DNA of 64,000 nucleotides, from NCBI RefSeq assembly GCF_044324875.1, contig NZ_CP172186.1. One strand, 5' to 3'. Numbering within the stretch: the first letter of the stretch is position 1; every line of letters begins with the position of its first letter. This stretch comes from Escherichia coli. Lineage in GTDB: Bacteria; Pseudomonadota; Gammaproteobacteria; Enterobacterales; Enterobacteriaceae. Positions 23,235 through 62,936 of the stretch are shown here, piece after piece. The notes beneath the pieces are model-generated. The model did no database searches. It had not been told where the DNA came from and worked only from the letters and a program-made list of their open reading frames with translations. A program made the position numbers and the translations under genes.

Positions 23235-25937
23235 ATGAATGCCATCATTCCGAAAAAAAGACGCGACGGAAAGTCTTCTTTTGAAGACCTGATTGCGTAC
23301 ACCTCAGTGCGGGATGATGTGCCGGAAGATGAACTCAGACCAGACACGGAAGTGAAAGGTGAGGTTCCGCACCGGAATCGCTTCAGACGTCTTGTTGATT
23401 ATGCAACACGTCTGCGTAATGAAAAATTTGTTTCCCTGATTGATGTGATGAAAGACGGCAGTCAGTGGGTGAATTTCTATGGTGTGACCTGCTTTCATAA
23501 CTGTTTGTCTCTTGAATCTGCGGCTGAAGAAATGCAGAAAGCAGCAGACCTTGCTTATTTTTCCAAAGATGATACAGATCCTGTTTTTCACTATATTCTC
23601 TCCTGGCCTGCGCACGAAAGTCCGCGTTCTGAGCAGCTTTTTGACTGTGTGCGTCACACCCTGAAATCCCTTGAGCTGTCAAAACATCAGTATGTGGCAG
23701 CCGTTCATACAGACACGGATAACCTGCATGTACATGTTGCAGTGAATCGTGTCCACCCTGAAACCGGCTATATCAATTGCCTTCCGTGGAGCCAGGAAAA
23801 ACTCAGCCGTGCATGTCGTGAACTTGAACTTAAGCACGGATTCGCGCCGGATAATGGCTGCTTTGTGCATGCACCCGGCAACCGTATTGTGCGCAAAACA
23901 GCGCTGGTACGTGAGCGCCGTAATGCCTGGCGACGCGGGAAAAAGCAGACGTTCAGGGAATATATTGCTCAGATGTCGATTGCCGGGCTGCGTGAAGAGC
24001 CTGCACAGGACTGGTTATCTTTGCATAAACGGCTGGCCAGCGATGGTCTGTATATCACGATGCAGGAAGGGGAACTGGTGGTGAAGGATGGCTGGGACAG
24101 AGCGCGGGAAGGTGTTGCACTCAGTTCGTTCGGACCGTCATGGACAGCTGAAAAACTGGGGCGGAAACTGGGGGAATATCAGCCTGTACCGACAGATATT
24201 TTCAGTCAGGTGGGGACACCCGGTCGTTATGATCCGGAAGCCATAAACGTTGATATCCGGCCGGAAAAAGTGGCAGAAACGGAGAGTCTGAAACAGTACG
24301 CCTGCCGTCACTTTGCTGAACGCTTACCGGCAATGGCGCGCAATGGTGAACTGAAAAGCTGCCTGGCTGTACACCGTACTCTGGCAGAGGCGGGATTATG
24401 GATGGGGATCCAGCACGGGCATCTGGTACTGCATGATGGATTTGATAAACAACAGACACCAGTACGTGCAGACAGTGTGTGGCCGTTGTTAACGCTGGAA
24501 AATATCAGAAAACTGAATGGCGGCTGGCAGTCTGTACCGAAGGATATTTTTACTCAGGTTGTACCACAAAGTCGCTTTAGTGGGCATCGAATGGATATGC
24601 ATCCGGTCAGTGATCATGAATGGCACAGAATGAGAACAGGGGCTGGCCCACAGGGGGCAATTAAGCGGGAGATTTTCTCTGACAAAGAGAGTCTGTGGGG
24701 ATATGCAGTCAGCCATTGTGCCCGTGATATTCAGTACATGATCTCTGAAGGGCGCTTTAGCTGGCAGAACTGCCATGAACTGTTTGCCCGCAGTGGACTG
24801 ATGTTACAGAAACTGCATCATGGTCTTGTGATTGTGGATGCGTTTAATCATGACCAGACACCGGTTAAAGCCAGCAGCATTCATCCGGATTTGACTTTGT
24901 CCAGAGCAGAGCCGCAGGCCGGGCCATTTGAAATTGCAGCGGCGGATATTTTCGATCGGGTGAAGCCTGAAAGCCGTTATAACCCTGATATGGCTGTCAG
25001 TGACAGTAAGGAACCCGGGTTTAAACGGGATCCTGAATTGCGCCGCCGTCGTCGTGAAACCCGTGCAGCTGCGCGGGAAGATTTGCGTGCGCGTTACCTT
25101 GCATGGAAGGAGCACTGGCGTAAACCCGATTTACGTTACGGCGAACGGTTACGGGAAGTTCATGCTGCCTGCCGCCGGCGCAAGGCGCATATCCGCGTAC
25201 AGTTCAGGGATCCGCAAGTGCGTAAGCTGCATTACCATATTGCGGAAGTGCAGCGAATGCAGGCGCTGATCAGGCTGAAGGAAAGCGTCAGGGAAGAGCG
25301 ACTGTCGCTGATGGCGGAAGGTAAGTGGTACCCGCTGTCTTACAGGCAGTGGGTGGAGCAGATGGCGGTTCAGGGGGATTCTGCTGCTGTATCTCAGTTA
25401 CGTGGATGGAATTATCGCGACAGAAGGAATGATGAGGTGCTTTTAACCACGCCTCAACGCTGTGTGGTTCTTTGTGAACCAGGCTCCACCCCGATTCACA
25501 GGGATATCGGTGGCATGGTGGCGACTTTGCAGCGTAATGGCAGTGTGCGTTTCCGTGATGCGACAACAGGAGAGTACGTCTGTACAGATTATGGTGATCG
25601 CGTTGTTTTCAGCAACAGTGCCGATAACAAAACACTGAAGAAAAGGATGGTCAGGGTGTCCAGTGTGCTTTTTGCAAGGGATCCCCGAATGGGGTTTGAG
25701 CCGGAAGGTCAGGATGCACAATTTAACCGTATGTTTGCTGATATGGTTGCGTGGAAAAACGTGCAGCGGGATGAGCGTAAGGGGCACTACAGGATAAGTC
25801 GTTCTGATGTTGATCAACTGAGGGTCAGTAGTGAAAAACGTTTTCGTGATTATCTTAAAGGGCGTGATACTGAATCACACACTTACCATCATGCAACGGA
25901 TGAAAATAAGTGGGAGCCGCCATCACCGGGGATGTAA
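23235..25937 (+). CDS. nikB: relaxase NikB (MOBP-type)
   Basis: 900 aa; N-terminal relaxase domain with HxDTDNLHVHVAVNRV histidine motif. Confidence 0.85.
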   Translation: MNAIIPKKRRDGKSSFEDLIAYTSVRDDVPEDELRPDTEVKGEVPHRNRFRRLVDYATRLRNEKFVSLIDVMKDGSQWVNFYGVTCFHNCLSLESAAEEMQKAADLAYFSKDDTDPVFHYILSWPAHESPRSEQLFDCVRHTLKSLELSKHQYVAAVHTDTDNLHVHVAVNRVHPETGYINCLPWSQEKLSRACRELELKHGFAPDNGCFVHAPGNRIVRKTALVRERRNAWRRGKKQTFREYIAQMSIAGLREEPAQDWLSLHKRLASDGLYITMQEGELVVKDGWDRAREGVALSSFGPSWTAEKLGRKLGEYQPVPTDIFSQVGTPGRYDPEAINVDIRPEKVAETESLKQYACRHFAERLPAMARNGELKSCLAVHRTLAEAGLWMGIQHGHLVLHDGFDKQQTPVRADSVWPLLTLENIRKLNGGWQSVPKDIFTQVVPQSRFSGHRMDMHPVSDHEWHRMRTGAGPQGAIKREIFSDKESLWGYAVSHCARDIQYMISEGRFSWQNCHELFARSGLMLQKLHHGLVIVDAFNHDQTPVKASSIHPDLTLSRAEPQAGPFEIAAADIFDRVKPESRYNPDMAVSDSKEPGFKRDPELRRRRRETRAAAREDLRARYLAWKEHWRKPDLRYGERLREVHAACRRRKAHIRVQFRDPQVRKLHYHIAEVQRMQALIRLKESVREERLSLMAEGKWYPLSYRQWVEQMAVQGDSAAVSQLRGWNYRDRRNDEVLLTTPQRCVVLCEPGSTPIHRDIGGMVATLQRNGSVRFRDATTGEYVCTDYGDRVVFSNSADNKTLKKRMVRVSSVLFARDPRMGFEPEGQDAQFNRMFADMVAWKNVQRDERKGHYRISRSDVDQLRVSSEKRFRDYLKGRDTESHTYHHATDENKWEPPSPGM

Positions 25938-26005
25938 AAATCATGTAGACAGGGTGATTAAATCACCGTAATGTGTCCTCGTTGTGTATACATTATGGGG
26001 GAGAT

Positions 26006-26254
26006 ATGCGAACACAGGTGACACTGCAAAAATGGGGCAACAGTATTGCTCTCCGGTTAACCGGAAATCTGAAAACCGTGCCGGGTTTTTCGGCAGGAGA
26101 TGTGGTTGATGTGGAAATCAGTGAGAAAGGATTGATCGTGGAAAAACCGGTGAGACCTCGTCTTACAGAGGCTGTATTGCTTGCGGGGCTGACGCCATTT
26201 TCCGCGCATGCAGATGAAGCTGCCACTCTTCTTGATAAGGAGAGTGAGTTCTGA
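26006..26254 (+). CDS. MazE/PemI-like antitoxin (AbrB/SpoVT fold)
   Basis: 82 aa MRTQVTLQKWGNSIALRL...; immediately precedes and overlaps the toxin gene. Confidence 0.7.
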   Translation: MRTQVTLQKWGNSIALRLTGNLKTVPGFSAGDVVDVEISEKGLIVEKPVRPRLTEAVLLAGLTPFSAHADEAATLLDKESEF

Positions 26255-26598
26255 TGTTTGTTCCAAAGCGTGGTGATATTTGCTGGCTTGATTTTGAACC
26301 CCAAAAAGGAAAAGAAATTGGCAAATATCGTCCGGCATTAATCCTGTCCCATGAGCAATATAATCGTTTAACAGGGCTTGTCATATGCTGCCCTGTCAGT
26401 ACGAGTATCCGGGGCGCTCCAACAGAGGTTCCTGTTACTAATCTCGATGCACCAAGTGTGGTGGCCACAACGCTCATACAGACACTTGACTGGCGGCAAA
26501 GGCAAGTGCGTTTAATTACGGAAGCAGAAGAGGGCGTATTTGATGAGGTGCTTGAGAGAGTGATCACTCTGATTGGTGGTGAACATTTACTGAAGTGA
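26254..26598 (+). CDS. MazF/PemK-family endoribonuclease toxin
   Basis: 114 aa ...KRGDICWLDFEPQKGKEIGKYRPALILS...GLVICCPVSTS... PemK-like. Confidence 0.75.
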   Translation: MFVPKRGDICWLDFEPQKGKEIGKYRPALILSHEQYNRLTGLVICCPVSTSIRGAPTEVPVTNLDAPSVVATTLIQTLDWRQRQVRLITEAEEGVFDEVLERVITLIGGEHLLK

Positions 26599-26600
26599 AG

Positions 26601-26854
26601 GAGCCTGTTTAAGATTCTGTGTAAATGCCTTTCTCAGAAGTGACCGTCCAGGCGGTCACCGAACTCGATAATAAAGCGGCTCATTGCCATTCGCCAGTCC
26701 TTCAACGGCATCGTCCATTTCCGGGACGCAGACTGGATTGCCAGCCACACCACTTTTTTCACCGAGTCGTCTGTCGGGAACACTTTACGCTTTTTGATCG
26801 CATGGCGGATCACGCTGTTTAGCGACTCGATGGCATTCGTCGTATAGATCACTT
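26601..26854 (-). mobile_element. IS256-family element, right-end fragment with transposase C-terminus
   Basis: 72-aa ORF 26634..26852 ...TNAIESLNSVIRHAIKKRKVFPTDDSVKKVVWLAIQ... typical IS256-family Tnp C-terminus. Confidence 0.7.
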
Positions 26855-28144
26855 TGAACCGCCCCGGAAATCCTGGAGACTAAACTTCCTGAGAAAGATG
26901 TAAACAGGATGACTAAAAATACTCGTTTTTCCCCCGAAGTCCGTCAACGGGCAGTTCGTATGGTTCTGGAAAGCCAGGGCGAATATGACTCACAATGGGC
27001 GGCAATTTGTTCCATTGCTCCAAAGATTGGCTGTACGCCAGAGACCCTGCGTGTCTGGGTTCGCCAGCATGAGCGGGATACCGGGGGCGGTGATGGTGGG
27101 CTCACCACCGCTGAACGTCAGCGTCTGAAAGAGCTGGAACGCGAAAATCGTGAACTGCGCCGCAGTAACGATATCCTTCGCCAGGCTTCCGCTTATTTTG
27201 CGAAGGCGGAGTTCGACCGCCTCTGGAAAAAATAATGCCACTGCTGGATAAGCTGCGTGAGCTGCAGTGAGCTGCATATTGCCCCGTCAACGTATTACCA
27301 CTGTCAGCAACAGCAGCATCATCCTGATAAACGCAGCGCCCGTGCGCAGCGTGATGACTGGCTGAAGAAAGAGATACAGCGCGTATACGATGAAAATCAC
27401 CAGGTGTACGGTGTGCGTAAAGTCTGGCGTCAGTTGTTACGGGAAGGTATCAGAGTGGCCAGATGCACTGTGACACGTCTTATGGCGGTTATGGGTTTTG
27501 CCGGTGTTCTCCGGGGTAAAAAGGTCCGCATTACCGTCAGCCGGAAAGCCGTTGCCGCAGGCGACCGCGTAAACCGTCATTTCGTGGCAGAACGTCCTGA
27601 CCAGCTGTGGGTGGCTGATTTTACTTACGTCAGCACATGGCAGGGCTTTGTTTATGTGGCGTTCATCATTGATGTGTTTGCCGGATACATCGTGGGATGG
27701 CGGGTCTCCTCGTCCATGGAAACGACATTCGTGCTGGATGCACTGGAGCAGGCGTTGTGGGCCCGTCGTCCGTCTGGCACCATCCATCACAGCGATAAAG
27801 GCTCTCAGTATGTATCGCTGGCCTACACGCAGCGGCTTAAGGAAGTCGGATTACTGGCATCAACAGGGAGCACAGGCGACTCGTATGACAACGCGATGGC
27901 GGAGAGCATCAATGGTCTTTACAAGGCGGAGGTAATACACCGTAAGAGCTGGAAAAACCGGACAGAAGTGGAGCTGGCTACACTCACGTGGGTGGACTGG
28001 TATAACAATCGACGATTGCTGGAAAGGCTGGGCCATACTCCCCCGGCAGAAGCAGAAAAAGCTTATTATGCTTCCATCGGAAACAATGATCTGGCAGCCT
28101 GAGTTCACAGACAAAACATTCTCCAGGAAACCCGGGGCGGTTCA
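26855..28144 (+). mobile_element. IS629/IS1203-like IS3-family element, copy A (small internal deletion, frameshifted orfB)
   Basis: Ends TGAACCGCCCCGG...CCCGGGGCGGTTCA; orfA 26909..27235, orfB remnant 27257..28102; ~20 bp missing at orfA/orfB junction relative to copy C. Confidence 0.85.
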
Positions 28145-28603
28145 GTTTTGCCATTCTACAACCTGCTCCATCACGGCATCGGTAACCTTTGATATCAGTG
28201 CCGGTGAAACATCTGCGTCATACAGTTCTTTGAACGCAGCGGCTATCTCACGGGTGGTCATCCCTTTGGCATACAACGAGAGGATCTGGTTATCCATCCC
28301 GGTAATACGGGTCTGATTTTTCTTTACCAGTTGTGGTTCGAAGGTACCGTCACGATCGCGCGGAGTACGCAGTTCCAGTGGACCGTCGCCTGTGATAACG
28401 GTCTTTGTGGAATAACCGTTGCGGGAGTTAGCTCCTGGTCTGGACTGATTTTTCTCATACCCAAGATGGTGTGTCATCTCTGCATTGAGAGCGGCTTCAA
28501 CGCTGAGCTTTTTCAGCAGCCGATCAAACTGACTGAGGTCTTCAGGGGTTTTGAGGTTTTTGGCCAGTTCGTTAGCCAGAGCCTGTAACTGTTTTTCGTC
28601 CAT
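28142..28603 (-). pseudogene. IS256-family transposase, N-terminal 153 aa (interrupted by IS629 copy A)
   Basis: MDEKQLQALANELAKNLKTPEDLSQFDRLLKKLSVEAALNAEMTHHLGYEKNQ...; middle ~175 codons absent. Confidence 0.75.
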
Positions 28604-28689
28604 AAATTAACCTTCATTTGATGCTGGATTGAACATATCAAAATCAGGCAATTACACAAATCTATGTACAGGCTCTTCCGCTGGCTGGC

Positions 28690-28935
28690 TCACCTGCGTC
28701 GCGCCGGCTGCCAGGTAAACGTGTTCTCTGCGGCACGATACGCTTTTGTTCGTTGAGCCTTTGCGGTTCTCGCTTTGCGCTCTGCCCGAATCATTCTCAA
28801 AACTTTTACACGCACTTTTCTCTTAACTTCCCGTGGCAGTTCATCCCTGCCGGACAACTTTAACTGTGCAGCCTGTGCGGCATAAGCATCGTTGATACGC
28901 TTACGTTCTGCTTCCGTCAGTTTCATCCAAGACAT
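28690..28935 (-). CDS. hypothetical highly basic small protein (cargo of the IS256-bounded insertion)
   Basis: 81 aa; strong AGGAGGA RBS 5 nt upstream of ATG. Confidence 0.45.
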   Translation of the reverse strand: MSWMKLTEAERKRINDAYAAQAAQLKLSGRDELPREVKRKVRVKVLRMIRAERKARTAKAQRTKAYRAAENTFTWQPARRR

Positions 28936-29073
28936 AATTCCTCCTGGTGACTTATCCGTGTTATGTCTTTAATCTGTATCCCCTTCGTTGCTATGCCTCC
29001 GGGATATCAGGTATTACCTTTCGAAGAATTTTATAAAAAACCACCTGTGCAGAGGGAAAGAGTGGATTTGCCC

Positions 29074-29979
29074 CTATATTTCCAGACATCTGTTATCACT
29101 TAACCCATTACAGGCCCGCTGCCGCAGATATTCCCGTGGCGAGCGATAACCCAACGCACTATGCGGATGCCATTCGTTATAATGCTCGAACGCCTCTGCA
29201 AGGTTCTTTGCTGCCGTTAACCCGTCTGGTTTGGGCATGACACTGATGTAGTCACGCTTTATCGTTTTCACGAAGCTCTCTGCTATGCCGTTACTCTCCG
29301 GACTCCGCACCGCCGTGTTCTTCGGTTCAAGCCCCAACATCCGGGCAAACTGCCGTGTTTCATTAGCCCGGTAGCATGAACCATTATCCGTCAGCCACTC
29401 TACTGGAGACGCCGGAAGCTCGTTGCCGAAGCGGCGTTCCACCGCTCCCAGCATGACGTCCTGTACTGTTTCACTGTTGAAGCCGCCCGTAGTGACCGCC
29501 CAGTGCAGTGCCTCACGGTCACAGCAGTCCAGCGCGAACGTGACTCGCAGTTTTTCTCCGTTATCACAGCGGAACTCGAACCCGTCAGAGCACCATCGCT
29601 GATTACTTTCTTTCACAGCCACTCTGCCGGTATGTGCCCGTTTCGATGGCGGTACAGCGGTTTTTCGCTCAAGCAACAGCGCATTCTGGCGCATGATCCG
29701 GTAAATACGTTTGGCATTGATCGCAGGCATACCATCAAGTTCTGTTTGTCTGCGAAGCAGCGCCCATACCCGACGATAACCATATGTGGGTAGCTCTCCG
29801 ATAACATGGTGTATACGGCGAAGCACATCCGTATCATCCGTGTGACGGCTGCGGCGGCCGTCCTTCCAGTCATCGGCTCGTCTGAGAATGACGTGCAACT
29901 GCGCACGCGACACCCGGAGACAACGGCTGACGAAGCTTACTCCCCATCCCCGGGCAATAAGGGCGCGTGCGCTATCCAC
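29074..29979 (-). CDS. insD: IS2 InsD (OrfB transposase)
   Basis: 301 aa DDE transposase ...[26 protein letters not shown]... Confidence 0.9.
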
Positions 29980-30347
29980 TTTTTTGCTCGCCCATATTCA
30001 ACGGCTTCTTTAAGGAGTTCATTTTCCATCGTTTTTTTGCCGAGCAGACGCTGGAGTTCTTTAATCTGCTTCATGGCGGCAGCAAGTTCAGAGGCAGGAA
30101 CGATCTGTTCTCCGGCAGCCACAGCAGTAAGACTTCCCTCCTGGTATTGCTTACGCCAGAGAAATAGCTGGCTGGCTGCCACACCATGTTGCCGGGCAAC
30201 AAGGGAGACCGTCATTCCCGGTTCAAAGCTCTGCTGAACGATAGCGATCTTTTCCTGTGTAGTACGCCGTCTGCGTTTCTCCGGCCCTAAGACATCAATC
30301 ATCTGTTCTCCAATGACTAGTCTAAAAACTAGTATTAAGACTATCAC
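29937..30347 (-). CDS. insC: IS2 InsC (OrfA)
   Basis: [53 protein letters not shown]... Confidence 0.9.
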
Positions 30348-30394
30348 TTATTTAAGTGATATTGGTTGTCTGGAGATTCAGGGGGCCAGTCTAA

Positions 30395-31981
30395 AGAGTA
30401 AGGAACTTACTGATTCATTTAATATTATTATCCATCAATAACTGAGCATACAAAAAAATAACAAAACTCTGACACAGATACAACCAGCTCTCTCTATATC
30501 AGACTGACATTCTTCTCAAAAAGAGGCGTGTTCTGGAACACGGAACAGAAGCAATGAACATTGTAGACAGAAACACACTCTGTTTTTTACACGAGGATAT
30601 ATGTCGGGAAAATCAGGCAGAAGAAATTAAAGGACTTTGTGCATACAAAGGGAAAGCGCGTTTCCGGTGCACCATATTAGATATTATCCCTGCTACAAAC
30701 ACCAGAGACGCGCTCATAACTCTTCTAGCGTAAAATATCCTTTCAGGCAAGGAAAAGGTCGTGATACAGAATCACGACCTTAATTTTATCGAAAACACGG
30801 ATTTTAGTATGCACATGACTGTACTCCTCAGGAGTACAGGGAAATCATAATCAGTAACAAAAACACCCGGCAACAAAAATTTAACGCGTTTACGCTATTT
30901 TTGTGACAAATATTGCAAATATGGAATCACTGTATTTTTACTGCAACAAAATCTGGTTGATCCACAGGCGGATCCGGGGTAAAAAATTATCCGGAATGTT
31001 TCTGCGTGGTGTGGTAAAACCTCTAGCCGGATTGCCTTTGCAGCAACGCAGGAACATTCCATCCTTTATCAGTACTCCTGACGCTGTAAAGACCTGGCTG
31101 ATGCAGACAGGACTGCTGATATCGAATCAAAGCTTTCTCATTTTTTCGCGTACACAAAATAAAACAAATCAGGCAATTCCTTACACTCCCCCTCTAAAAT
31201 TGAGGGTTTTTTTTTACCATATAAATTACTTGCACAGCTTTTAAAAAAATTGCAAATCTTTACTGTAGTGTCGGGCTTCATGTAGCTCAACAGGGCATGG
31301 ACTAAAAAGAAGTAAACCCATCTTTTATCTCCCTGATATGGGGGTCTTTGTGGCATAAAGAATTCCTTGAATTATTATTTTGATCATATCAACATGAAAA
31401 GAATAATACTCTGACTTTTGATTTCCAGTGCCAGATATAAAATCAAATTCACTGTAAATATCACATAATGATATCTGGCTGCCCCCAGTCACTTCCTGTA
31501 TTCAGCCACACATATAAGCCCCCTGAATTTCCTTGTGGTTTTTATGTGATAAAAACCACAAGGAAACGATGGTTGAAATAATATTTAAAATGTGAAAGAT
31601 ATCACCCGTAGAATTTTTCAATCCGACACTCCATAGAATGGACCTTTAAGATTTAATCCTCATCATGTATGAGGATTTTTTTTCTGGCAGACAAAAATAT
31701 CTTTTCAGCAATCCCTGTTCAGTTCCGGTTCTGGTGACTCTGGAAGAGGTATTGTTACACGCTATAACCTGCCGGAATGACTCAGGTCCGTTCATCTCTG
31801 ATACCATTAAAAGAAGCATTAAGCACATTCTGAGCGCCTCTTACAGAAGAAGCGGAACGCGTTCCTGGCTCCTGTTGCATAATCTTACTAACCCCATGGT
31901 TTTCTTGACTGCCAGAAACGCGCCCACAGTTTTTTTAGCCTGTCTCCGGTTCCTTGTCTAGAATACTGTTGATTTTTTGTT
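30395..31981. other. AT-rich non-coding segment with three plus-strand intrinsic terminators and a 13-bp-arm palindrome
   Basis: No convincing ORF; hairpin+T-run at ~30760..30790, ~31188..31218, ~31663..31693; palindrome CCTTGTGGTTTTT-ATGTGAT-AAAAACCACAAGG ~31530..31565. Confidence 0.5.
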
Positions 31982-33163
31982 TGAACCGCCCCGGGTTTCC
32001 TGGAGAGTGTTTTATCTGTGAACTCAGGCTGCCAGATCATCGTTTCCGATGGAAGCATAATAAGCTTTTTCTGCTTCTGCCGGTGGGATATGGCCCAGCC
32101 TTTCCAGCAATCGTCGATTGTTATACCAGTCCACCCACGTGAGTGTGGCCAGCTCCACTTCTGTCCGGTTTTTCCAGCTCTTACGGTGTATTACCTCCGC
32201 TTTGTAAAGGCCATTGATGCTCTCCGCCATCGCGTTGTCATACGAGTCACCAGTACTTCCTGTTGATGCCAGTAATCCGGCTTCCTTAAGCCGCTGTGTG
32301 TAGGCCAGCGATACATACTGAGAACCTTTATCACTGTGATGGACTGTGCCGGACGGTCGACGGGCCCATAACGCCTGCTCCAGAGCATCCAGCACGAATG
32401 TCGTTTCCATAGACGATGAGACCCGCCACCCCACGATGTATCCGGCAAACACATCAATGATGAACGCCACATAGACGACCCCCTGCCATGTGCTGACGTA
32501 AGTAAAATCAGCCACCCACAACTGGTCAGGACGTTCTGCCACAAACTGACGGTTTACGCGGTCGCCTGCGGCAACGGCTTTCCGGCTGACGGTAGTGCGG
32601 ACCTTTTTACCCCGGAGAACACCGGCAAGTCCCATAACCGCCATGAGGCGCGCCACTGTACATCTGGCTACCCTGATTCCTTCCCGTAACAACTGACGCC
32701 AGACTTTACGCACACCGTATACCTGATGATTCCCATCGTATACGCGCAGTATCTCTTTCTTCAGCCAGTCATCGCGCTGCGCACGGGCACTGCGTTTATA
32801 AGGATGATGTCGCTGTTGCTGACAGTGGTAATACGTTGACGGGGCAATATGTAGTTCACTGCATACCGGTCCGACCCCGTACAGCTTACGCAGCTTATCC
32901 AGCAGTGGCATCACTTTTTCCAGAGGCGGTCGAACTCCGCCTTCGCAAAATAAGCGGAAGCCTGGCGAAGGATATCGTTACTGCGGCGCAGTTCACGATT
33001 TTCACGTTCCAGCTCTTTCAGACGCTGACGTTCAGCGGTGGTGAGCCCGCCATCACCGCCTCCGGTATCCCGCTCATGCTGGCGTACCCAGACACGCAGG
33101 GTCTCTGGCGTACAGCCAATCTTTGGAGCAATGGAACAAATTGCCGCCCACTGTGAGTCATAT
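31982..33163 (-). mobile_element. IS629/IS1203-like element, copy B, 5'-truncated
   Basis: orfB 32024..32914 intact; orfA loses its first ~30 codons at the junction with the IS66-family element. Confidence 0.8.
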
Positions 33164-33193
33164 GTAAGCGACTCGTCAGAACCGTATTGATAT

Positions 33194-34765
33194 TTACTGA
33201 GAGCTCAGATCAACTTTCCAGGGCAACAGATCGCGTACCCGGTTTGCCGGCCAGTCCTGGATATGTTCAATGACGTAACGCAGCCACTTTTCTGGCTCCA
33301 CATTGTTCAGACGGCATGTGCCGATCAGCGAGTACAACACCGCCGCATGTTCACCACCGCTGTCGGAACCCGCGAACATCCAGTTTTTCCGGCCTACGGC
33401 CACTCCCCGTAAGGCGTTCTCTGCGATGTTGTTGTCGATTTCCACCCAGCCATTACTGCAGTACACGTTCAGTGCATCCCACTGTTTCAGCAGGTATGCG
33501 AACGCTTTTGCCGTATCTGAGTGACGCGACAGTGTTTTCATCTGTTGCTGTATCCAGTCATACAGTGACTGCATCAGTGGCGCGGCTCTGGCTTTTCTTG
33601 CCGCCAGACGCTGTTCTGCTGAACAGCCCCGGACCTCTGCCTCGATGGCATACAGTTCACCGATACGCTGCAGGGCTTCCGTGGTGATGTAGGTGGGCGC
33701 TCTTGCATGCACATCGTGGATTTTTCTCCGGGCATGAGCCATACACGCGGCTTCCGTTATTCTGCCGGATTCGTATAACGCCCGGTAACCACCGTAAGCA
33801 TCGGCCTGAAGCACACCGCTGTAACCGGCCAGGTGATTTTGTGGATGGATACCTTTCCGGTCCGGACTGTACGCGAACCAGACCGCCGGGGGCATCTGTG
33901 AACCGGCGTTACGGTCATCACGGACGTAGACCCACAGCCGGGCTGTCCGGGTTTTACCGCTGCCCGGCTCCTGGACCGGGACGGGGATATCATCAGCATG
34001 GACTTTACCGGGCATCAGCACATACTGGCGCAGGACGTCATACAGCGGCTCCAGCAGTTCAGCAACAGCACCTGTCCAGCGCCCCAGTGTGGCACGGCTC
34101 AGCTCCACTCCCTGACGACGGTATATTTCTGACTGGCGGTATAACGGCAGATGGTCTGCATATTTCCCGGTGACAACATGGGCCAGAAGCCCCGCTCCGG
34201 CATAACTGCGTGCAATGGGTTTTGAAGGTACTGGTGCCTGCACGATATGGTCGCACCGGCAACAGGCCTGTTTCGGACGTTGTGTTTCGATAACCTTAAA
34301 GGCGCTGCTGATAAGCTCCAGTTGCTCTGACACATCACATCCCAGAGAACTGAGTTCACCACCACAGGCAGGACAGCATTCCTCTTCCGGCCGGATAACC
34401 CGGGTTTCACGGGGAAGTGAGGCCGGTAACGGTTTACGGGCTGAAGACTGGCGCAGGGCGGATGGCAGTACCGGGTCATATTGCTCACCCAGCGTTTCCG
34501 CCATTTCTTCCTGAAGTGCGCTGATTCGCTCCTGTGCTTCCTGTATCTGCCGTTCGGTTTTTGCACGAAGTTTTTCTGAGCTTTTACCGAACTGCATACG
34601 TTGCAGTTTCGCAACCAGCGCCTTCAGCCGGTTGATTTCGGAAGCATAAGCCGCCACCCGCTGTGAGAGCAGGCGGTTGTATTCAGCCATCTGGCGGATG
34701 GTGTCCTGTTGCGTCTGCAACAGTGCCCGCAGGCGGGCGTTCTCATGAGCAAGTGAGGTGTCCAT
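33194..34765 (-). CDS. IS66-family transposase (TnpC)
   Basis: 523 aa with leucine-zipper N-terminus and CPACGG zinc motif, typical IS66 TnpC. Confidence 0.85.
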
Positions 34766-34784
34766 ATCCTCACTTTACAACGGG

Positions 34785-35132
34785 TTATATGCGGATTCCA
34801 GCGCGTTCCGTTCGTTTCGGGTGCTTCCAGTTGATACCTTCAAGAAGCATGGATAACTGAGCCGGAGTAAGGTGCACCTTGCCGTCACGGGTGACTGGCC
34901 AGACGAAGCGGCCCCGCTCCAGGCGTTTGGTGAAGAGGCACAGTCCGTCACTGTCAGCCCACAACACTTTTATCTGGTCACCCCGGCGTCCGCGGAAGAT
35001 GAACAGGTGTCCGGAGAACGGGTCATCCTTCAGGACGTTCTGAACTTTTGATGCCAGGCCGTTAAAGCCATTTCGCATATCGGTGATACCTGCAACCAGC
35101 CAGATACGCGAACCTGCAGGGAGAGATATCAT
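34785..35132 (-). CDS. IS66-family TnpB (orf2)
   Basis: 115 aa MISLPAGSRIWLVAGITDMRNGFNGLA... Confidence 0.85.
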   Translation of the reverse strand: MISLPAGSRIWLVAGITDMRNGFNGLASKVQNVLKDDPFSGHLFIFRGRRGDQIKVLWADSDGLCLFTKRLERGRFVWPVTRDGKVHLTPAQLSMLLEGINWKHPKRTERAGIRI

Positions 35133-35809
35133 CAGTGGCTGCTCCCTTTTATTTCGCGGATAAGTGTCTGTAATAACGCCGGCGTCAGTTTACCTTTAAG
35201 CCTGAGAGTTCCGGCCGGCAGAACCAGCTCACAACACAGACTGTCGGACGGTGTATTTATCTGCTCTGGTTCCTGTGCGGGGGCCGGGATTTTATTATCC
35301 GGCTCCGGCGTTAACGTCACGGGAAGCAGTGCCGGCATATTTTTTCCGGAAGGCAGCAGGCCACCTTTCCGGTATTGATGGCGCCAGTTGAAGAGCAGGT
35401 TATCGTTGATTCCGTTTTCCCGGGCGATCTGCGCCACACAGGCTCCGGGCTGCAGTGACTGCTCCACTAAGGCGATTTTAAACTCATAAGGGAAGTTGGG
35501 CCGCCGGGGACGTTTTTTTACCACGGGGGCTTCGGATATAACGGTGCTTTCAGGACGTACGACTGGTACCGTGGAAAATTGTCCGTAAAGGCAGGCATCA
35601 AGTTCCTGCTCCGACATGCCTGCGGGCAAAGGCCACGAAAGGCCAGCTCTCCGAAAGCGCACGAACATACTACAAACTGTTGATTTTGGTACACCCAGGC
35701 GACGCCCGGCCACAACCCGGGGTAAATGTTCTTCAAAGTGAAGACGTAAAGCTTCAGTGATCCAGGTCCGGTGTTTCATACGATAGTGTCCATTAAAAAT
35801 GATGGACAT
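35132..35809 (-). CDS. IS66-family orf1 (TnpA-like HTH protein); start uncertain
   Basis: First ORF of the three-gene IS66 arrangement. Confidence 0.7.
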   Translation of the reverse strand: MSIIFNGHYRMKHRTWITEALRLHFEEHLPRVVAGRRLGVPKSTVCSMFVRFRRAGLSWPLPAGMSEQELDACLYGQFSTVPVVRPESTVISEAPVVKKRPRRPNFPYEFKIALVEQSLQPGACVAQIARENGINDNLLFNWRHQYRKGGLLPSGKNMPALLPVTLTPEPDNKIPAPAQEPEQINTPSDSLCCELVLPAGTLRLKGKLTPALLQTLIREIKGSSH

Positions 35810-35855
35810 TATTTTTGTAGAGCCGGAGGAAACAGACCAGACGGTTTAAATGAGC

Positions 35856-36042
35856 CGGTTACTTCCCGACAGACGACTCGGTGAAAAAAGTGGTGTGGCT
35901 GGCAATCCAGTCTGCGTCCCGGAAATGGACGATGCCGTTGAAGGACTGGCGAATGGCAATGAGCCGCTTTATTATCGAGTTCGGTGACCGCCTGGACGGT
36001 CACTTCTGAGAAAGGCATTTACACAGAATCTTAAACAGGCTC
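35856..36042 (+). mobile_element. IS256-family element, second right-end fragment (inverted relative to 26601..26854)
   Basis: Reverse complement of 26601..~26785 including transposase 3' end. Confidence 0.7.
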
Positions 36043-36086
36043 AAGTGAAGCTAAGCACACAATCAATTCAGGTCTTTGACATCCTC

Positions 36087-36151
36087 CATCTTAACTTCCA
36101 AAGGGTACTCCCGCCGACATAAGGCGGGAGTACCCTTTGGAAGTTAAGATG
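36087..36151. repeat. perfect 29-bp inverted repeat with 7-bp loop
   Basis: CATCTTAACTTCCAAAGGGTACTCCCGCC-GACATAA-GGCGGGAGTACCCTTTGGAAGTTAAGATG; flanked by 13-bp direct repeats TTGACATCCTCCA at 36076 and 36254. Confidence 0.6.
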
Positions 36152-36296
36152 GAAAACCGACATAAGAACCCTCTGTTATCCTGAAACTCTTATATTTATA
36201 TAACTTGTGAAGGCGTTATGCACACAACCAATCTTCGCAAAGTCGGCGTCTCGTTGACATCCTCCACGCCCTGACGAATGTGGAGGAATGTCAATA

Positions 36297-38570
36297 TTAA
36301 TGTCCGGGCCACTCCTGTTGTTCAGTGACGTGATGTGATATTTCTTCTTTAGCTGTAGCCTCATTCTGGAGGTTTGAAGTAAATATACGCTCCATTGTTT
36401 GTGCAACCGATGGTGGCATTTTTTCTTCCACACGTTCCTCTTCCGGACAACTCTGTGTGATATAGCATACGTGCCGTTCTTCCCGGGATGTGGTATTGAT
36501 GATGTGAACTGCCTTGTTCCACAGGCTGTTTCCCCGGGCAGAGATATCTGTATCATATTGCGGAAGCAGATCCAGCGATGTTTGTGTTTCGTTAAGCTGC
36601 TTCTGGAAGGTATCGATGATACGGTAAGGCTCTGTACGGTTTTTACGACGTTTACGGGATGGTTTTGCTGTCAGTACACCAATAATGCTGCTGACATGCT
36701 CCGGTGTGGGAAAACGGCGCTGCACTGTCCTGGGGACGAGACGGCGGAGACGCTCCAGGCGGGGGGCTTCAACGGAAATATAGCGGTTGATGACCACCGG
36801 ATCACTGTCGCAACTTTTCTCGCTGTCCGGAATATACACAGAGGCTGACGGCACCACATCCCCCTGGAAAACGGTAAAGAACTCACCGGCATTCAGTCTG
36901 ATCAAATCCTGCACGTCGATTTTGCTTTCCATCTGGATGGTGATCTGGTTACCGTCCACCCAGGACTCACCCATCACACCATCGTGGCGCTGCAGGCTGC
37001 CCATTCTGGCCCGAGCCTCTTCACCGGCGGCATTTTTCACCGTTCTTGCCGTTTTGTCGTCACTGACAATGCGTCCGGCGAATTTGGTGCCGGCGTTCTG
37101 CATCAGTGTGGCGGTGTTGGTGGCGGAGGTCTGCCCTTCAATTCGCTCCTGATCCTGCGCCATCATTATCAGGGAAAACTCCAGTGAACGTACCTGGGTG
37201 GCCTCCACAGCAATGCGGTCTGTGTAGTAGGCACCGACTTCGTCAAGGATACAGATATAGGGGAAGCGGCCTTTGTATTTTTTTACTTCCAGGGTCTGTG
37301 CGTCTGTGCCTTCCAGGCGGTAGCCCAGGTCACGGGCGAGGATCATGCTCTGCTGGGTGATGAACATACGACCGAGTGCCGACGTGGTATGGGCTGATGT
37401 GTCCAGTGCGGGGATCATCACAATCAGAATTCGGTCGCTGTGGATACTGTCGCGAATATCGATGTCGCCGGCATCTGCCGCAAAGACGTCCCCGAAGGTT
37501 TCGGCAAAGGTTGTGAATGTTTCCGAGAACTGACCGGAGAGATAAGCATGCTGTTTACGGGGCTCCTCAGTCCAGGCTGACGGCGTTCTCACCAGTGACA
37601 TATCGAATCCCGGAACGTCCTGCAGGTAATTTCTCAGTGGTGCGATGGCTTCTTCCGGCCACTGGTCATCAAGCCCACGGCAATAGAGTTTTGCCATACC
37701 TTCCAGCGTCATATGCTCCCGTAACATCTGCAGGGACATGGTTTTTCTTTCCCGGACGCACCAGAATTTTGTGCCAAAGACCAGGGCTTTGTTCATGGCT
37801 ATCGCCCGTGACTGCCATTCACCCCCCTGAACGTTCTGGGGAAGCATGGACTGCATGGTTTCGGCGGTGAAGGCTTCGGTGCTGAATGCGAACGGGTTCC
37901 AGGTGTTTGACTGTGGGCGGGATTTTTCGCCGCTCTGAATGATTTCACTGCGGGATTTTCCGCCGTTCATGAAGTTGATGACCTCGATATCATCCTCCCG
38001 GCCAAAACGTCGGGAGAGATACCAGATTGTCCTCGTGGTATCGTTCTGTGCCTTTCCGTCAACAAAGGTAAAGCCTCTTCCCCAGCAGAGAGGGTTGAGC
38101 AGCCAGGCAAAGGTGGTTTCTGTTTTACCGCCACCGGTGGTGGAAAAAAATATGATATGCCGGGTGAGGTCATCCATGCTCAGCCAGAGCTCACGACCGA
38201 TATCGTTGATACGGCGGTAACCGACATAAAAAATCCCCCGTGCGGGGGATGTTTCATCTGCTTCATACTGAAACAGGGTGGGCCAGAAGCTGAAGAGGCT
38301 TCGCCTGACCTTTCTGTCCTGGGAGGGGTCATCAAGGCTGAGCGTCATGGGCATACGCAGGGGGCATCGCCAGCGTTGCAGCGTGAATATCACGGAGGTG
38401 ACCAGGGTGAACAGCAGACAGACAGGAAGGGCCAGTGGCCATATCAGGGCCGTAATGATACTGCCGGCCAGACACAGACCAATGATGTTCAGGTTGTGCA
38501 GTGCATTCCACAGCGGGTTTCCCCAGGCCGTGCGGTGTATGAGGTCAGGATTAACGTGATGCTGGCTCAT
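36297..38570 (-). CDS. trbC: TrbC, conjugative coupling-type ATPase (N-terminal membrane segments, Walker A)
   Basis: 757 aa; ...FFSTTGGGKTET... Walker A; size/order as IncI1 trbABC. Confidence 0.8.
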   Translation of the reverse strand: MSQHHVNPDLIHRTAWGNPLWNALHNLNIIGLCLAGSIITALIWPLALPVCLLFTLVTSVIFTLQRWRCPLRMPMTLSLDDPSQDRKVRRSLFSFWPTLFQYEADETSPARGIFYVGYRRINDIGRELWLSMDDLTRHIIFFSTTGGGKTETTFAWLLNPLCWGRGFTFVDGKAQNDTTRTIWYLSRRFGREDDIEVINFMNGGKSRSEIIQSGEKSRPQSNTWNPFAFSTEAFTAETMQSMLPQNVQGGEWQSRAIAMNKALVFGTKFWCVRERKTMSLQMLREHMTLEGMAKLYCRGLDDQWPEEAIAPLRNYLQDVPGFDMSLVRTPSAWTEEPRKQHAYLSGQFSETFTTFAETFGDVFAADAGDIDIRDSIHSDRILIVMIPALDTSAHTTSALGRMFITQQSMILARDLGYRLEGTDAQTLEVKKYKGRFPYICILDEVGAYYTDRIAVEATQVRSLEFSLIMMAQDQERIEGQTSATNTATLMQNAGTKFAGRIVSDDKTARTVKNAAGEEARARMGSLQRHDGVMGESWVDGNQITIQMESKIDVQDLIRLNAGEFFTVFQGDVVPSASVYIPDSEKSCDSDPVVINRYISVEAPRLERLRRLVPRTVQRRFPTPEHVSSIIGVLTAKPSRKRRKNRTEPYRIIDTFQKQLNETQTSLDLLPQYDTDISARGNSLWNKAVHIINTTSREERHVCYITQSCPEEERVEEKMPPSVAQTMERIFTSNLQNEATAKEEISHHVTEQQEWPGH

Positions 38571-56842: not shown

Positions 56843-57120
<278 letters not shown>

Positions 57121-57148
57121 TAAACTCCCTGAGAAAGAGGTAAACAGA

Positions 57149-57475
57149 ATGACTAAAAATACTCGTTTTTCCCCCGAAGTCCGTCAGAGGGCGATTCGTA
57201 TGGTTCTGGAAAGTCAGGGCGAATATGACTCACAGTGGGCGGCAATTTGTTCCATTGCCCCAAAGATTGGCTGTACACCGGAGACTCTGCGTGTCTGGGT
57301 ACGCCAGCATGAGCGGGATACCGGAGGCGGTGATGGCGGGCTCACCACCGCTGAACGTCAGCGTCTGAAAGAGCTGGAACGTGAAAATCGTGAACTGCGC
57401 CGCAGTAACGATATCCTTCGCCAGGCTTCCGCTTATTTTGCGAAGGCGGAGTTCGACCGCCTCTGGAAAAAGTGA
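57149..57475 (+). CDS. IS629 OrfA
   Basis: 108 aa [41 protein letters not shown]... Confidence 0.9.
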
Positions 57476-58362
57476 TGCCACTGCTGGATAAGCTGCGTAA
57501 GCTGTACGGGGTCGGACCGGTATGCAGTGAACTACATATTGCCCCGTCAACGTATTACCACTGTCAGCAACAGCGACATCATCCTGATAAACGCAGTGCC
57601 CGTGCGCAGCGCGATGACTGGCTGAAGAAAGAGATACTGCGCGTATACGATGGGAATCATCAGGTATACGGTGTGCGTAAAGTCTGGCGTCAGTTGTTAC
57701 GGGAAGGAATCAGGGTAGCCAGATGTACAGTGGCGCGCCTCATGGCGGTTATGGGACTTGCCGGTGTTCTCCGGGGTAAAAAGGTCCGCACTACCGTCAG
57801 CCGGAAAGCCGTTGCCGCAGGCGACCGCGTAAACCGTCAGTTTGTGGCAGAACGTCCTGACCAGTTGTGGGTGGCTGATTTTACTTACGTCAGCACATGG
57901 CAGGGGGTCGTCTATGTGGCGTTCATCATTGATGTGTTTGCCGGATACATCGTGGGGTGGCGGGTCTCATCGTCTATGGAAACGACATTCGTGCTGGATG
58001 CTCTGGAGCAGGCGTTATGGGCCCGTCGACCGTCCGGCACAGTCCATCACAGTGATAAAGGTTCTCAGTATGTATCGCTGGCCTACACACAGCGGCTTAA
58101 GGAAGCCGGATTACTGGCATCAACAGGAAGTACTGGTGACTCGTATGACAACGCGATGGCGGAGAGCATCAATGGCCTTTACAAAGCGGAGGTAATACAC
58201 CGTAAGAGCTGGAAAAACCGGACAGAAGTGGAGCTGGCCACACTCACGTGGGTGGACTGGTATAACAATCGACGATTGCTGGAAAGGCTGGGCCATATCC
58301 CACCGGCAGAAGCAGAAAAAGCTTATTATGCTTCCATCGGAAACGATGATCTGGCAGCCTGA
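57472..58362 (+). CDS. IS629 OrfB (DDE transposase)
   Basis: 296 aa; ...[13 protein letters not shown]...[10 protein letters not shown]...[15 protein letters not shown]... Confidence 0.9.
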
Positions 58363-58425
58363 GTTCACAGATAAAACACTCTCCAGGAAACCCGGGGCGG
58401 TTCAAAACGTCAGCCACATCACAAA

Positions 58426-62061: not shown

Positions 62062-62067
62062 TTGGAT

Positions 62068-62389
62068 TTGCCCCTATATTTCCAGATACCTGTTATCACT
62101 TAACCCATTACTGGCTTGCTGCCGTAGATATTCCCGTGGCGAGCGATAACCCAGTGCACTATGCGGATGCCATTCGTTATAATGCTCGAACGCCTCTGCA
62201 AGGTTCTTTGCTGCCGTTAACCCGTCTGGTTTGGGCATGACACTGATGTAGTCACGCTTTATCGTTTTCACGAAGCTCTCTGCTATGCCGTTACTCTCCG
62301 GACTCCGCACCGCCGTGCTCTTCGGTTCAAGCCCCAACATCCGGGCAAACTGCCGTGTTTCATTAGCCCGGTAGCATGAACCATTATCC
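62068..62389 (-). mobile_element. IS2 3'-end fragment
   Basis: IS2 right terminus TGGATTTGCCCCTATATTTCCAG and InsD C-terminal ~104 codons. Confidence 0.8.
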
Positions 62390-62936
62390 GTCATCCATAT
62401 CACCACGTCAAAGGGTGACAGCAGGCTCATAAGACGCCCCAGCGTCGCCATCGTGCGTTCACAGAATACGTGCGCAACAACCGTCTTCCGGAGCCTGTCA
62501 TACGCGTAAAACAGCCAGCGCTGGCGCGATTTAGCCCCGACATAGCCCCACTGTTCGTCCATTTCCGCGCAGACGATGACGTCACTGCCCGGCTGTATGC
62601 GCGAGGTTACCGACTGCGGCCTGAGTTTTTTAAGTGACGTAAAATCGTGTTGAGGCCAACGCCCATAATGCGGGCAGTTGCCCGGCATCCAACGCCATTC
62701 ATGGCCATATCAATGATTTTCTGGTGCGTACCGGGTTGAGAAGCGGTGTAAGTGAACTGCAGTTGCCATGTTTTACGGCAGTGAGAGCAGAGATAGCGCT
62801 GATGTCCGGCGGTGCTTTTGCCGTTACGCACCACCCCGTCAGTAGCTGAACAGGAGGGACAGCTGATAGAAACAGAAGCCACTGGAGCACCTCAAAAACA
62901 CCATCATACACTAAATCAGTAAGTTGGCAGCATCAC
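62390..62936 (-). mobile_element. IS1 5' fragment (insA plus start of insB) fused to the IS2 fragment
   Basis: InsA 62607..62882 [39 protein letters not shown]...; InsB N-terminus reads in frame into IS2 InsD; IS1 terminus ...GGCAGCATCACC. Confidence 0.8.

Follow-up and report, generated by a model that had tools for sequence, protein, structure and literature searches.

The 9,442-bp block at positions 26601-36042 of the 64,000-nt Escherichia coli DNA stretch analysed here (the window) is very probably what remains, after decay, of a single composite-transposon insertion. It lies in the convergent pemK-trbC spacer of a conjugative IncK2/Z plasmid, where two outward-facing ends of IS1414, an element of the IS256 family, share a single 8-bp target duplication, AAGTGAAG.

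Outer ends and IS1414 arms

Comparison of the window with itself revealed an inverted repeat of 180 bp, 100% complementary, formed by 26601-26780 and 35863-36042. The repeat corresponds to IRR, the transposase-distal end of IS1414, and both IRRs face outward. The initial annotation had described the block as bounded by inverted copies of one IS256-family end, which the alignment bears out, with no difference between the two copies over these 180 nt. The extent given there for the left copy (26601..26854, IS1414 nt 1-254) stands; the right copy had been started at 35856, and its true start is 35863, as 35856-35862 are the final bases of ISCro1 and have no IS1414 match. The IRR, GAGCCTGTTTAAGATTCTGTGTAAATGCC, is found in the window at 26601 and 36042, and the other end of the element (IRL; reverse-complemented, GAGCCTGTACATAGATTTGTGTAATTGCC) at 28675; the two are imperfect terminal inverted repeats.

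The sequence AAGTGAAG is present at 26593-26600 and at 36043-36050, directly adjoining the terminal IRR base on both sides, and the 9,442-bp insert is what lies between these copies. The left copy takes in the pemK stop codon (TGA) and the final AAG codon before it, so that pemK is left intact and the site is neutral. When duplication length was measured directly on intact chromosomal IS1414 copies, all four of four had 8-bp duplications.

With the 1314-bp IS1414 copy annotated by PGAP as reference, numbered from the IRR, the arms are 99.6-100% identical to IS1414. The left arm comprises an outer piece (26601..26854, minus strand; nt 1-254, containing the IRR and the last 72 transposase codons; 99.6% identity) and an inner piece (28145..28675, minus strand; nt ~784-1314, containing the IRL and the first 153 transposase codons; 99.8% identity). 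The inner, 531-bp piece was not listed in the earlier inventory. The right arm (35863..36042, plus strand) is made of nt 180-1 and ends in the outward IRR. Between the two IRR-bearing arms lie 1,975 bp of non-IS DNA.

The N-terminal 153-aa and C-terminal 72-aa transposase fragments, which are the only transposase coding sequences in the window, both match the NCBIfam IS256-family profile NF033543 (E 2.3e-34, profile positions 1-114 of 338, and E 2.9e-10, positions 296-336 of 338, respectively). Both matches fall under the full-length cut-off because only fragments are present; with the DNA identity to IS1414, they uphold the proposed IS256-family assignment of the ends. IS1414 is described as an E. 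coli IS256-family element whose transposase gene contains astA, encoding EAST1 (McVeigh et al. 2000, cited in PMC12585946), and its decay through deletion and point mutation is reported to be common (PMC12585946). The window copy lacks nt 257-780 (524 bp), where astA lies; this absence is secondary and leaves the family assignment unchanged.

In the sister plasmids pE16-3, pLH10-b-1-A and pGF43-A, one arm is a complete 1314-bp IS1414. It carries an intact astA, and its transposase gene has an internal stop (longest ORF 203 aa vs 402 aa). It is the only full-length arm found, and no arm encodes a working transposase. In every plasmid examined the other arm is cut at nt 220-256 or earlier, and the pemK-side arm is always shortened to nt 256 or less among the plasmids compared; the second arm never exceeds 256 bp, so that its origin from a complete IS1414 is conjectural. 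The complete arm has unlike flanks, TTCCGCTG on its inner side and AAGTGAAG on the other; therefore, the duplication belongs to the IRR pair and not to one IS. Since no duplication flanks the full-length arm by itself, we infer that the unit inserted as a block through its two IRR ends. The composite transposon with outward right ends that had been proposed is thus supported by the IRR pair, the shared duplication, the empty sites (below) and the unlike flanks of the complete arm.

An assembly of the region in place, step by step, is improbable. It would take two events: first, the arrival of a solitary IS1414 that made the AAGTGAAG duplication; second, the later addition of the cargo and of a second, inverted IRR by a small plasmid carrying IS1414, through recombination or fusion. 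Such a course would fit the single type of IRL-cargo junction, the pemK-side arm that always ends at nt 256 or earlier, and a cargo made of small-plasmid DNA. However, IS-mediated homologous recombination or replicon fusion yields direct, not inverted, copies, and the incoming DNA would need to land precisely at the boundary of the duplication and the terminal IS base. Furthermore, the complete arm lacks its own duplication while the two IRR ends share one, and a search of 72,556 plasmids revealed none of this lineage in which a lone IS1414 has AAGTGAAG next to each of its ends. These observations favour insertion as a block.

Empty sites and distribution among plasmids

The uninterrupted pemK-trbC spacer, with one AAGTGAAG, was found in pRM10042-1 (NZ_CP028120) and pA16EC0070-1 (CP088867). 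It is the same continuous spacer as that obtained by joining the two flanks of the window, as the initial annotation had foreseen. Because these one-copy empty sites exist, the repeat is a true target duplication and not a sequence natively present twice. Both plasmids belong to the I-complex; they are of different replicon types (IncI-gamma/K1 and IncK2/Z) and differ in the cassettes further along the spacer.

The insert occupies the pemK-trbC site in at least 13 IncK2/Z plasmids, mostly poultry-derived, and this one common site indicates a single ancestral event. An identical left junction is present in 12 PLSDB plasmids, and the right junction is also common to at least 8 of the 12. In PLSDB and 5,426 complete E. 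coli genomes, all copies of the 81-aa cargo gene are at the pemK-trbC site, except two diverged small-plasmid homologues. The uninterrupted composite element suggested by the initial annotation did not turn up in the plasmids and complete E. coli genomes searched, which also yielded no second insertion site and no donor carrying an intact composite. Since the unit is found at one site only, a single event underlies the case for its mobility as a block.

Where pemK lies at this position, occupied plasmids (about 13) outnumber empty ones (2), as would be expected if the spacers of pRM10042-1 and pA16EC0070-1 were products of precise excision and the occupied state were ancestral for pemIK-bearing plasmids. 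This is very unlikely: an element is rarely excised so precisely that one copy of the duplication is left, and the different replicon types and spacer cassettes of the two plasmids point to an old unoccupied state; even if it were true, the mechanism by which the insert arrived would be unchanged. The idea that the region is native or was recombined in without block transposition, the 8-bp repeat being coincidental or natively double, has only the shortness of the repeat in its favour and is already refuted by empty sites in which the spacer is continuous and AAGTGAAG occurs once, by a repeat that adjoins the terminal IRR nucleotide on both sides and has the length of an IS1414 duplication, and by a chance of about 1 in 65,536 (~1.5e-5) for an 8-base match at two fixed positions.

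Cargo and IS elements inside the insert

The non-IS DNA of the window is in two parts, which were contiguous before IS2 entered. Part 1 (28676..29062, minus strand, 387 bp) includes an ORF for an 81-aa basic protein (28690..28935, minus strand), and part 2 (30394..31981, 1588 bp) is AT-rich and ORF-poor (GC 0.34-0.42). The cargo originally listed, an 81-aa basic protein gene and 1.6 kb of AT-rich DNA, is therefore correct, with the refinement that it is one contiguous fragment related to ColE1-type plasmids. Cargo nt 15-1919 (~1.9 kb) are ~78% identical to an ORF-poor stretch of the ColE1-type colicin plasmid pLH10-b-1-D (NZ_CP100534), where the counterpart lies between the mbe mobilisation genes and exc2. 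The corresponding mbe-exc2 stretch of pSMS35_8 (NC_010485), another such plasmid, also aligned to the cargo at ~78% identity; both plasmids are relatives of the cargo, not its donor. At the IRL-cargo junction IS1414 is next to TTCCGCTGGC, the only such junction ever observed among the plasmids compared. Sister plasmids contain an extra 943 bp of cargo that is absent from the window.

Neither the 81-aa protein nor three ORFs of the AT-rich DNA matched a Pfam or NCBIfam family. The 81-aa protein has nine homologues in a large protein database (69-100% identity), all unnamed. Its ORF is not open in pLH10-b-1-D and pSMS35_8; other small plasmids, such as pRHBSTW-00814_4 (87% DNA identity), have it open. 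No cargo ORF is conserved with the ColE1-type homologues. The AT-rich DNA has no iterons or tandem repeats; a single perfect hairpin of 18 bp is present, along with some terminator-like stems. The whole cargo module is kept in nearly all occupied plasmids examined, and pCFSAN083829_2 keeps the AT-rich part only. That the module persists despite heavy IS traffic, and that it diverges by ~20% from its ColE1-type counterpart, could suggest a functional small-plasmid module, for instance non-coding RNAs or binding sites together with a small protein that binds nucleic acid; we regard this as a slim prospect. Terminator-like hairpins are in excess in the AT-rich DNA of the module.

The initial annotation listed two IS629 copies, IS2 and an IS66-family element as later arrivals. 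The inventory is right; as to how they sit, IS629 'a' and ISCro1 occupy deletion junctions and are not simple insertions. Variant 'a', an IS629-type element of the IS3 family (26855..28144, plus strand, 1290 bp; ALIL frameshift pseudoknot at 27190-27276), is ~20 bp shorter than the 1310-bp form, has no target duplication and stands in place of IS1414 nt ~257-780, the astA-carrying part. Variant 'b' (31982..33163, minus strand; nt 129-1310 present; ALIL pseudoknot at 32840-32956) is 93% identical to variant 'a' and lacks its first 128 bp; it is complete in pLH50-c-A. IS2 (29063..30393, minus strand, 1331 bp), identified by its junction sequences and an NCBIfam IS2 TnpB match of 704.6 bits (cut-off 597), is a simple insertion with a 5-bp duplication, AAGAG, at 29058-29062 and 30394-30398. 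ISCro1, of the IS66 family (33164..35862, 2699 bp, tnpA-tnpB-tnpC on the minus strand), has no target duplication and replaces 128 bp of IS629 'b' and 37 bp of IS1414 relative to pLH50-c-A. PGAP annotates the IS629/IS1203 isoforms only as 'IS3 family'. An Rfam scan of 25900-36700 returned the IS3-family ALIL frameshift pseudoknots, one sub-threshold palindrome match and nothing else.

Among the sister plasmids, IS positions vary, and so does the orientation of the central segment; the window has this segment inverted relative to some of them. A single inversion between IS629 copies does not convert the pE16-3-type arrangement into that of the window: IS1414 nt 257-780, the extra 943 bp of cargo and arm nt 221-783 would have to be lost as well. 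Getting from one of the two sister-plasmid arrangements to the other takes several steps and could not be brought down to one inversion. Recombination between the arms was ruled out as the origin of the opposite ISCro1 orientations in p135-2 and the window, because homologous inversion preserves junction sequences, yet the junctions differ.

Proposed history and relation to known elements

Taken together, the sequences suggest the following history. They show directly how the block is built, its duplication, the empty site, its one location and where the cargo came from, while block transposition and the succession of later events are deduced from them. The donor, for which a small ColE1-type plasmid is the likeliest source, would have carried two inverted IS1414 sequences, IRRs outward, with 2-3 kb or more of small-plasmid DNA between them. 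IS1414 transposase would have acted on the two outer IRR ends, so that the entire unit entered an IncK2/Z plasmid at the pemK-trbC spacer, with duplication of AAGTGAAG. The plasmid lineage would then have spread, mainly in poultry E. coli, while the insert became a landing pad and a recombination substrate. IS629-type elements would have inserted into both arms (nt ~220 and ~254), IS2 into the cargo and ISCro1 into the trbC-side arm. IS1414 nt 257-780, astA included, would have been lost through adjacent deletions, as would 943 bp of cargo and the junction of IS629 'b' with the right arm; the central segment is inverted between sister plasmids. With both IRR ends intact and no arm encoding a transposase, the unit would at most be movable in trans.

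The closest parallel is Tn4001, in which inverted IS256 copies surround aacA-aphD in staphylococci and enterococci; this IS256-flanked composite has flanking duplications and a progenitor plasmid with an empty site (PMC6496109). As in Tn4001, the arms are inverted IS256-family copies whose outer ends are of one kind, the target duplication surrounds the whole unit, and a progenitor-type plasmid with a single target exists (PMC6496109). In contrast to Tn4001, the arms are IS1414 rather than IS256; in place of a resistance gene, the cargo has an 81-aa orphan gene within ORF-poor DNA of a small plasmid; both window arms are broken and encode no transposase, and one site only is occupied. Of the marks of a composite transposon, the unit shows a duplication flanking the whole and not each IS, and an unoccupied target in related replicons; occurrence at more than one site and a working transposase within the unit are not among its features.

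The terminal repeats and the 8-bp duplication are those of the IS1414 reference; unlike plain IS1414, two IRR ends here bound a larger unit, and unlike the reference, the window copy lacks nt 257-780 and astA. The region also resembles the IS-nested regions of large E. coli plasmids, with the same nested IS types (IS629/IS1203, IS2, IS66-family, IS100), junction deletions and inversions between inverted copies; it differs from the usual ones in that its founding event can be read from the outer ends, the duplication and the empty site.

The element is of a known kind, an ordinary composite transposon, and nothing in it goes against current understanding. The insert brings an intact astA (EAST1) in the sister plasmids, and the window plasmid has lost this gene. 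The pemK|IS1414 and IS1414|trbC junctions mark one poultry-associated IncK2/Z plasmid lineage, found in Switzerland, China, Russia, Romania and Egypt, which could be sub-typed by its varying IS content. In conclusion, the region offers a clean case, from Enterobacteriaceae, of a composite unit in which an IS256-family element moved foreign DNA and which then decayed.

Ends of the insert and the target duplication

The window comes from a conjugative plasmid of the I-complex, whose nearest relatives are typed IncK2/Z. Genes for a NikB-type relaxase (23235-25937), mazE/pemI (25973-26254) and pemK/mazF (26254-26598) lie on one side of the insert (26601-36042), and trbC (36297-38570), on the strand opposite to pemK, on the other; pemK and trbC are convergent, and the insert therefore sits between two gene ends. 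The inverted IS256-family ends and flanking 8-bp repeat seen in the initial annotation were confirmed: a repeat finder returned two 180-nt arms (26601-26780 and 35863-36042), 100% complementary, and AAGTGAAG (26593-26600 and 36043-36050) adjoins the terminal base of each. The left copy extends beyond the arm, up to 26854. The coordinates first assigned to the copies were correct in all but 7 bases: the right copy starts at 35863, as 35856-35862 belong to the end of ISCro1.

As reference we used an astA-containing IS1414 copy from a Klebsiella plasmid (NCBI annotation 'IS256-like element IS1414 family transposase'), bounded to 1314 bp using its terminal repeats. It matched 26601-26854 (nt 1-254, carrying IRR, at the downstream end of the transposase gene), 35863-36042 (nt 180-1) and 28145-28675 (nt ~784-1314, carrying IRL and codons 1-153 of the transposase). 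The two transposase fragments of the window match the N- and C-termini of the NCBIfam IS256-family profile, and nt 257-780, the astA-bearing part, are missing. An intact astA (EAST1 enterotoxin) frame is kept in sister plasmids, relatives with the same insert (L007 9629-9742, L013 13329-13442), within an IS1414 that has an internal stop in its transposase; in the window plasmid a deletion has removed this portion of IS1414.

The 8-bp repeat is a target duplication, as supported by three tests. First, a search of the joined flanks against 72,556 plasmids found empty sites in pRM10042-1 (IncI-gamma/K1) and pA16EC0070-1 (IncK2/Z); in both, pemK is continuous with the spacer, AAGTGAAG is single and the next 39 bases are identical. 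Second, each of four intact chromosomal IS1414 copies is flanked by an 8-bp duplication (CCGCAGGC, TTCAGCAG, TATCCGGC and ATCCCAAG). Third, the trbC-side arm of pE16-3, pLH10-b-1-A and pGF43-A is a complete 1314-bp IS1414, with TTCCGCTG as inner flank versus AAGTGAAG as outer flank; therefore that copy did not insert alone, and the duplication belongs to both IRR ends jointly.

The pemK-trbC spacer also holds a perfect palindrome (36085-36153; 31-bp arms, 7-nt loop) between GACATCCTCCAT and ATGGAAAACCGAC. Its slot contains 200 bp of unrelated DNA in pRM10042-1; in pA16EC0070-1 it holds about 3 kb with genes for a cytosine methyltransferase and a type II restriction endonuclease. The joined-flank query gave 167 records in all; most of the others align with it over the palindrome alone (query 428-507), which makes the slot look like either a site for swap-in cassettes or a small mobile palindrome.

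Composition of the block and origin of its cargo

From pemK to trbC, the block consists of the target duplication, IS1414 nt 1-254, IS629-type 'a' (1290 bp), IS1414 nt 784-1314, 387 bp of cargo (non-IS DNA) holding an 81-aa ORF, IS2 (29063-30393), 1588 bp of AT-rich cargo, IS629-type 'b' (nt 129-1310, inverted), ISCro1, IS1414 nt 180-1 and the target duplication again; about 79% of it is IS DNA. IS2 went in by simple insertion and duplicated 5 bp (AAGAG). IS629a has unlike flanks and 524 bp of IS1414 are replaced; the flanks of ISCro1 also differ (GAGTCATAT vs TTCCCGAC). Sister plasmid pLH50-c-A, 99.9% identical to the window across the rest of the insert, is without ISCro1 and retains IS629b in full, with 217 bp of IS1414 after it; therefore 128 and 37 bp were lost beside ISCro1 in the window.

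ISCro1 adjoins IS1414 at one 8-bp target (GTCGGGAA, nt 173-180) in both the window (35855-35870) and p135-2, in opposite orientations (L003 4284-4299 and 6983-6998), a combination that arm-arm recombination cannot explain. The junction of the window recurs in CP057502.1, an unrelated 68-kb plasmid of E. coli from sheep. Together, these cases suggest an ISCro1 hot spot within IS1414.

The two cargo pieces join up when IS2 is taken out, and nt 15-1919 of the joined cargo are 78% identical to DNA lying between exc2 and the mbe genes of pLH10-b-1-D, which is a ColE1-type colicin R plasmid; pSMS35_8 aligns in similar fashion. The cargo shares no conserved ORF with these two homologues, no family could be assigned to the 81-aa basic protein, whose relatives number only nine, all unnamed, and the AT-rich DNA contains no iterons. 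Outside this insert, the 387-bp piece was absent from PLSDB and from 5,426 complete E. coli genomes, except for two small plasmids (85-87% identity). The likeliest reading of the cargo is a scrap from a small mobilisable plasmid. In ColE1-type colicin plasmids (about 8.9-9.4 kb), ~2 kb without annotated or conserved ORF separate the mbe genes from exc2 (L011 6528-8489 in pLH10-b-1-D; L009 7865-8909 and 1-531 in pSMS35_8), and a region of this type is the source of the cargo.

Spread and rearrangement in sister plasmids

The occupied plasmids are regarded as many descendants of one insertion event. The pemK|IRR junction is identical in 12 PLSDB plasmids, at least 8 of which also have the IRR|trbC junction, and RefSeq adds two more, with the insert likewise at this site. 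Most of these plasmids are from chickens or chicken meat, and the countries represented are Switzerland, China, Russia, Romania and Egypt.

In pCh101 and pCFSAN083829_2 the arms are symmetrical, both cut at nt 220. In pE16-3, pLH10-b-1-A and pGF43-A, the pemK side carries IS1414 nt 1-256, IS629a and an extra 943 bp that are interrupted by IS100 and resemble small plasmids (89-93% over about 350 bp); next come the AT-rich DNA, IS2 and the 81-aa piece, all in opposite orientation, then the complete IS1414 and trbC. Lineages thus differ by an inversion of the central segment, the outcome expected when inverted repeats recombine; no single event linking the two main arrangements was found. IS629-type elements entered IS1414 at four points (~220, ~254, ~781 and 1023-1025), ~781 being a junction that a deletion left behind and not a demonstrable insertion. 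IS2 occupies three different positions or orientations inside about 100 bp (window 29058-30398; L002 7306-8636; L003 9895-11225), having entered the cargo independently in different sister plasmids, which indicates a local hot spot.

The window has further IS remnants outside the insert: a 192-bp fragment of an IS100 end (56903-57094) adjoins a complete IS629 'b'-type copy (57095-58404), 99.5% identical to that of the insert and a potential partner for larger rearrangements; a 335-bp IS2 fragment lies at 62063-62397.

Proposed transposition and present mobility

IS256-family transposases act on terminal repeats and cut their target with a short stagger. The IS1414 transposase would have acted on both outward IRR ends of the donor unit, inserting it into AAGTGAAG; pemK is unchanged because the duplicated bases contain its stop codon. 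The empty sites, the 8-bp IS1414 duplications and the sister-arm flanks support, with small corrections, the earlier reading of a composite transposon with outward IRR ends. It resembles Tn4001, in which two inverted IS256 copies move the intervening DNA and leave a flanking duplication, and for which an empty-site progenitor plasmid is likewise known (PMC6496109).

The unit is now non-autonomous, because the window has transposase fragments only and the full-length arm of its relatives has an internal stop (longest ORF 203 aa vs 402 aa). IS1414 matches were present in 3,965 of the 5,426 E. coli genomes and many copies are intact (PMC12585946); putative mobilisation in trans is therefore conceivable. 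The block is very probably a conventional IS256-family composite transposon, previously unnamed and now a relic.
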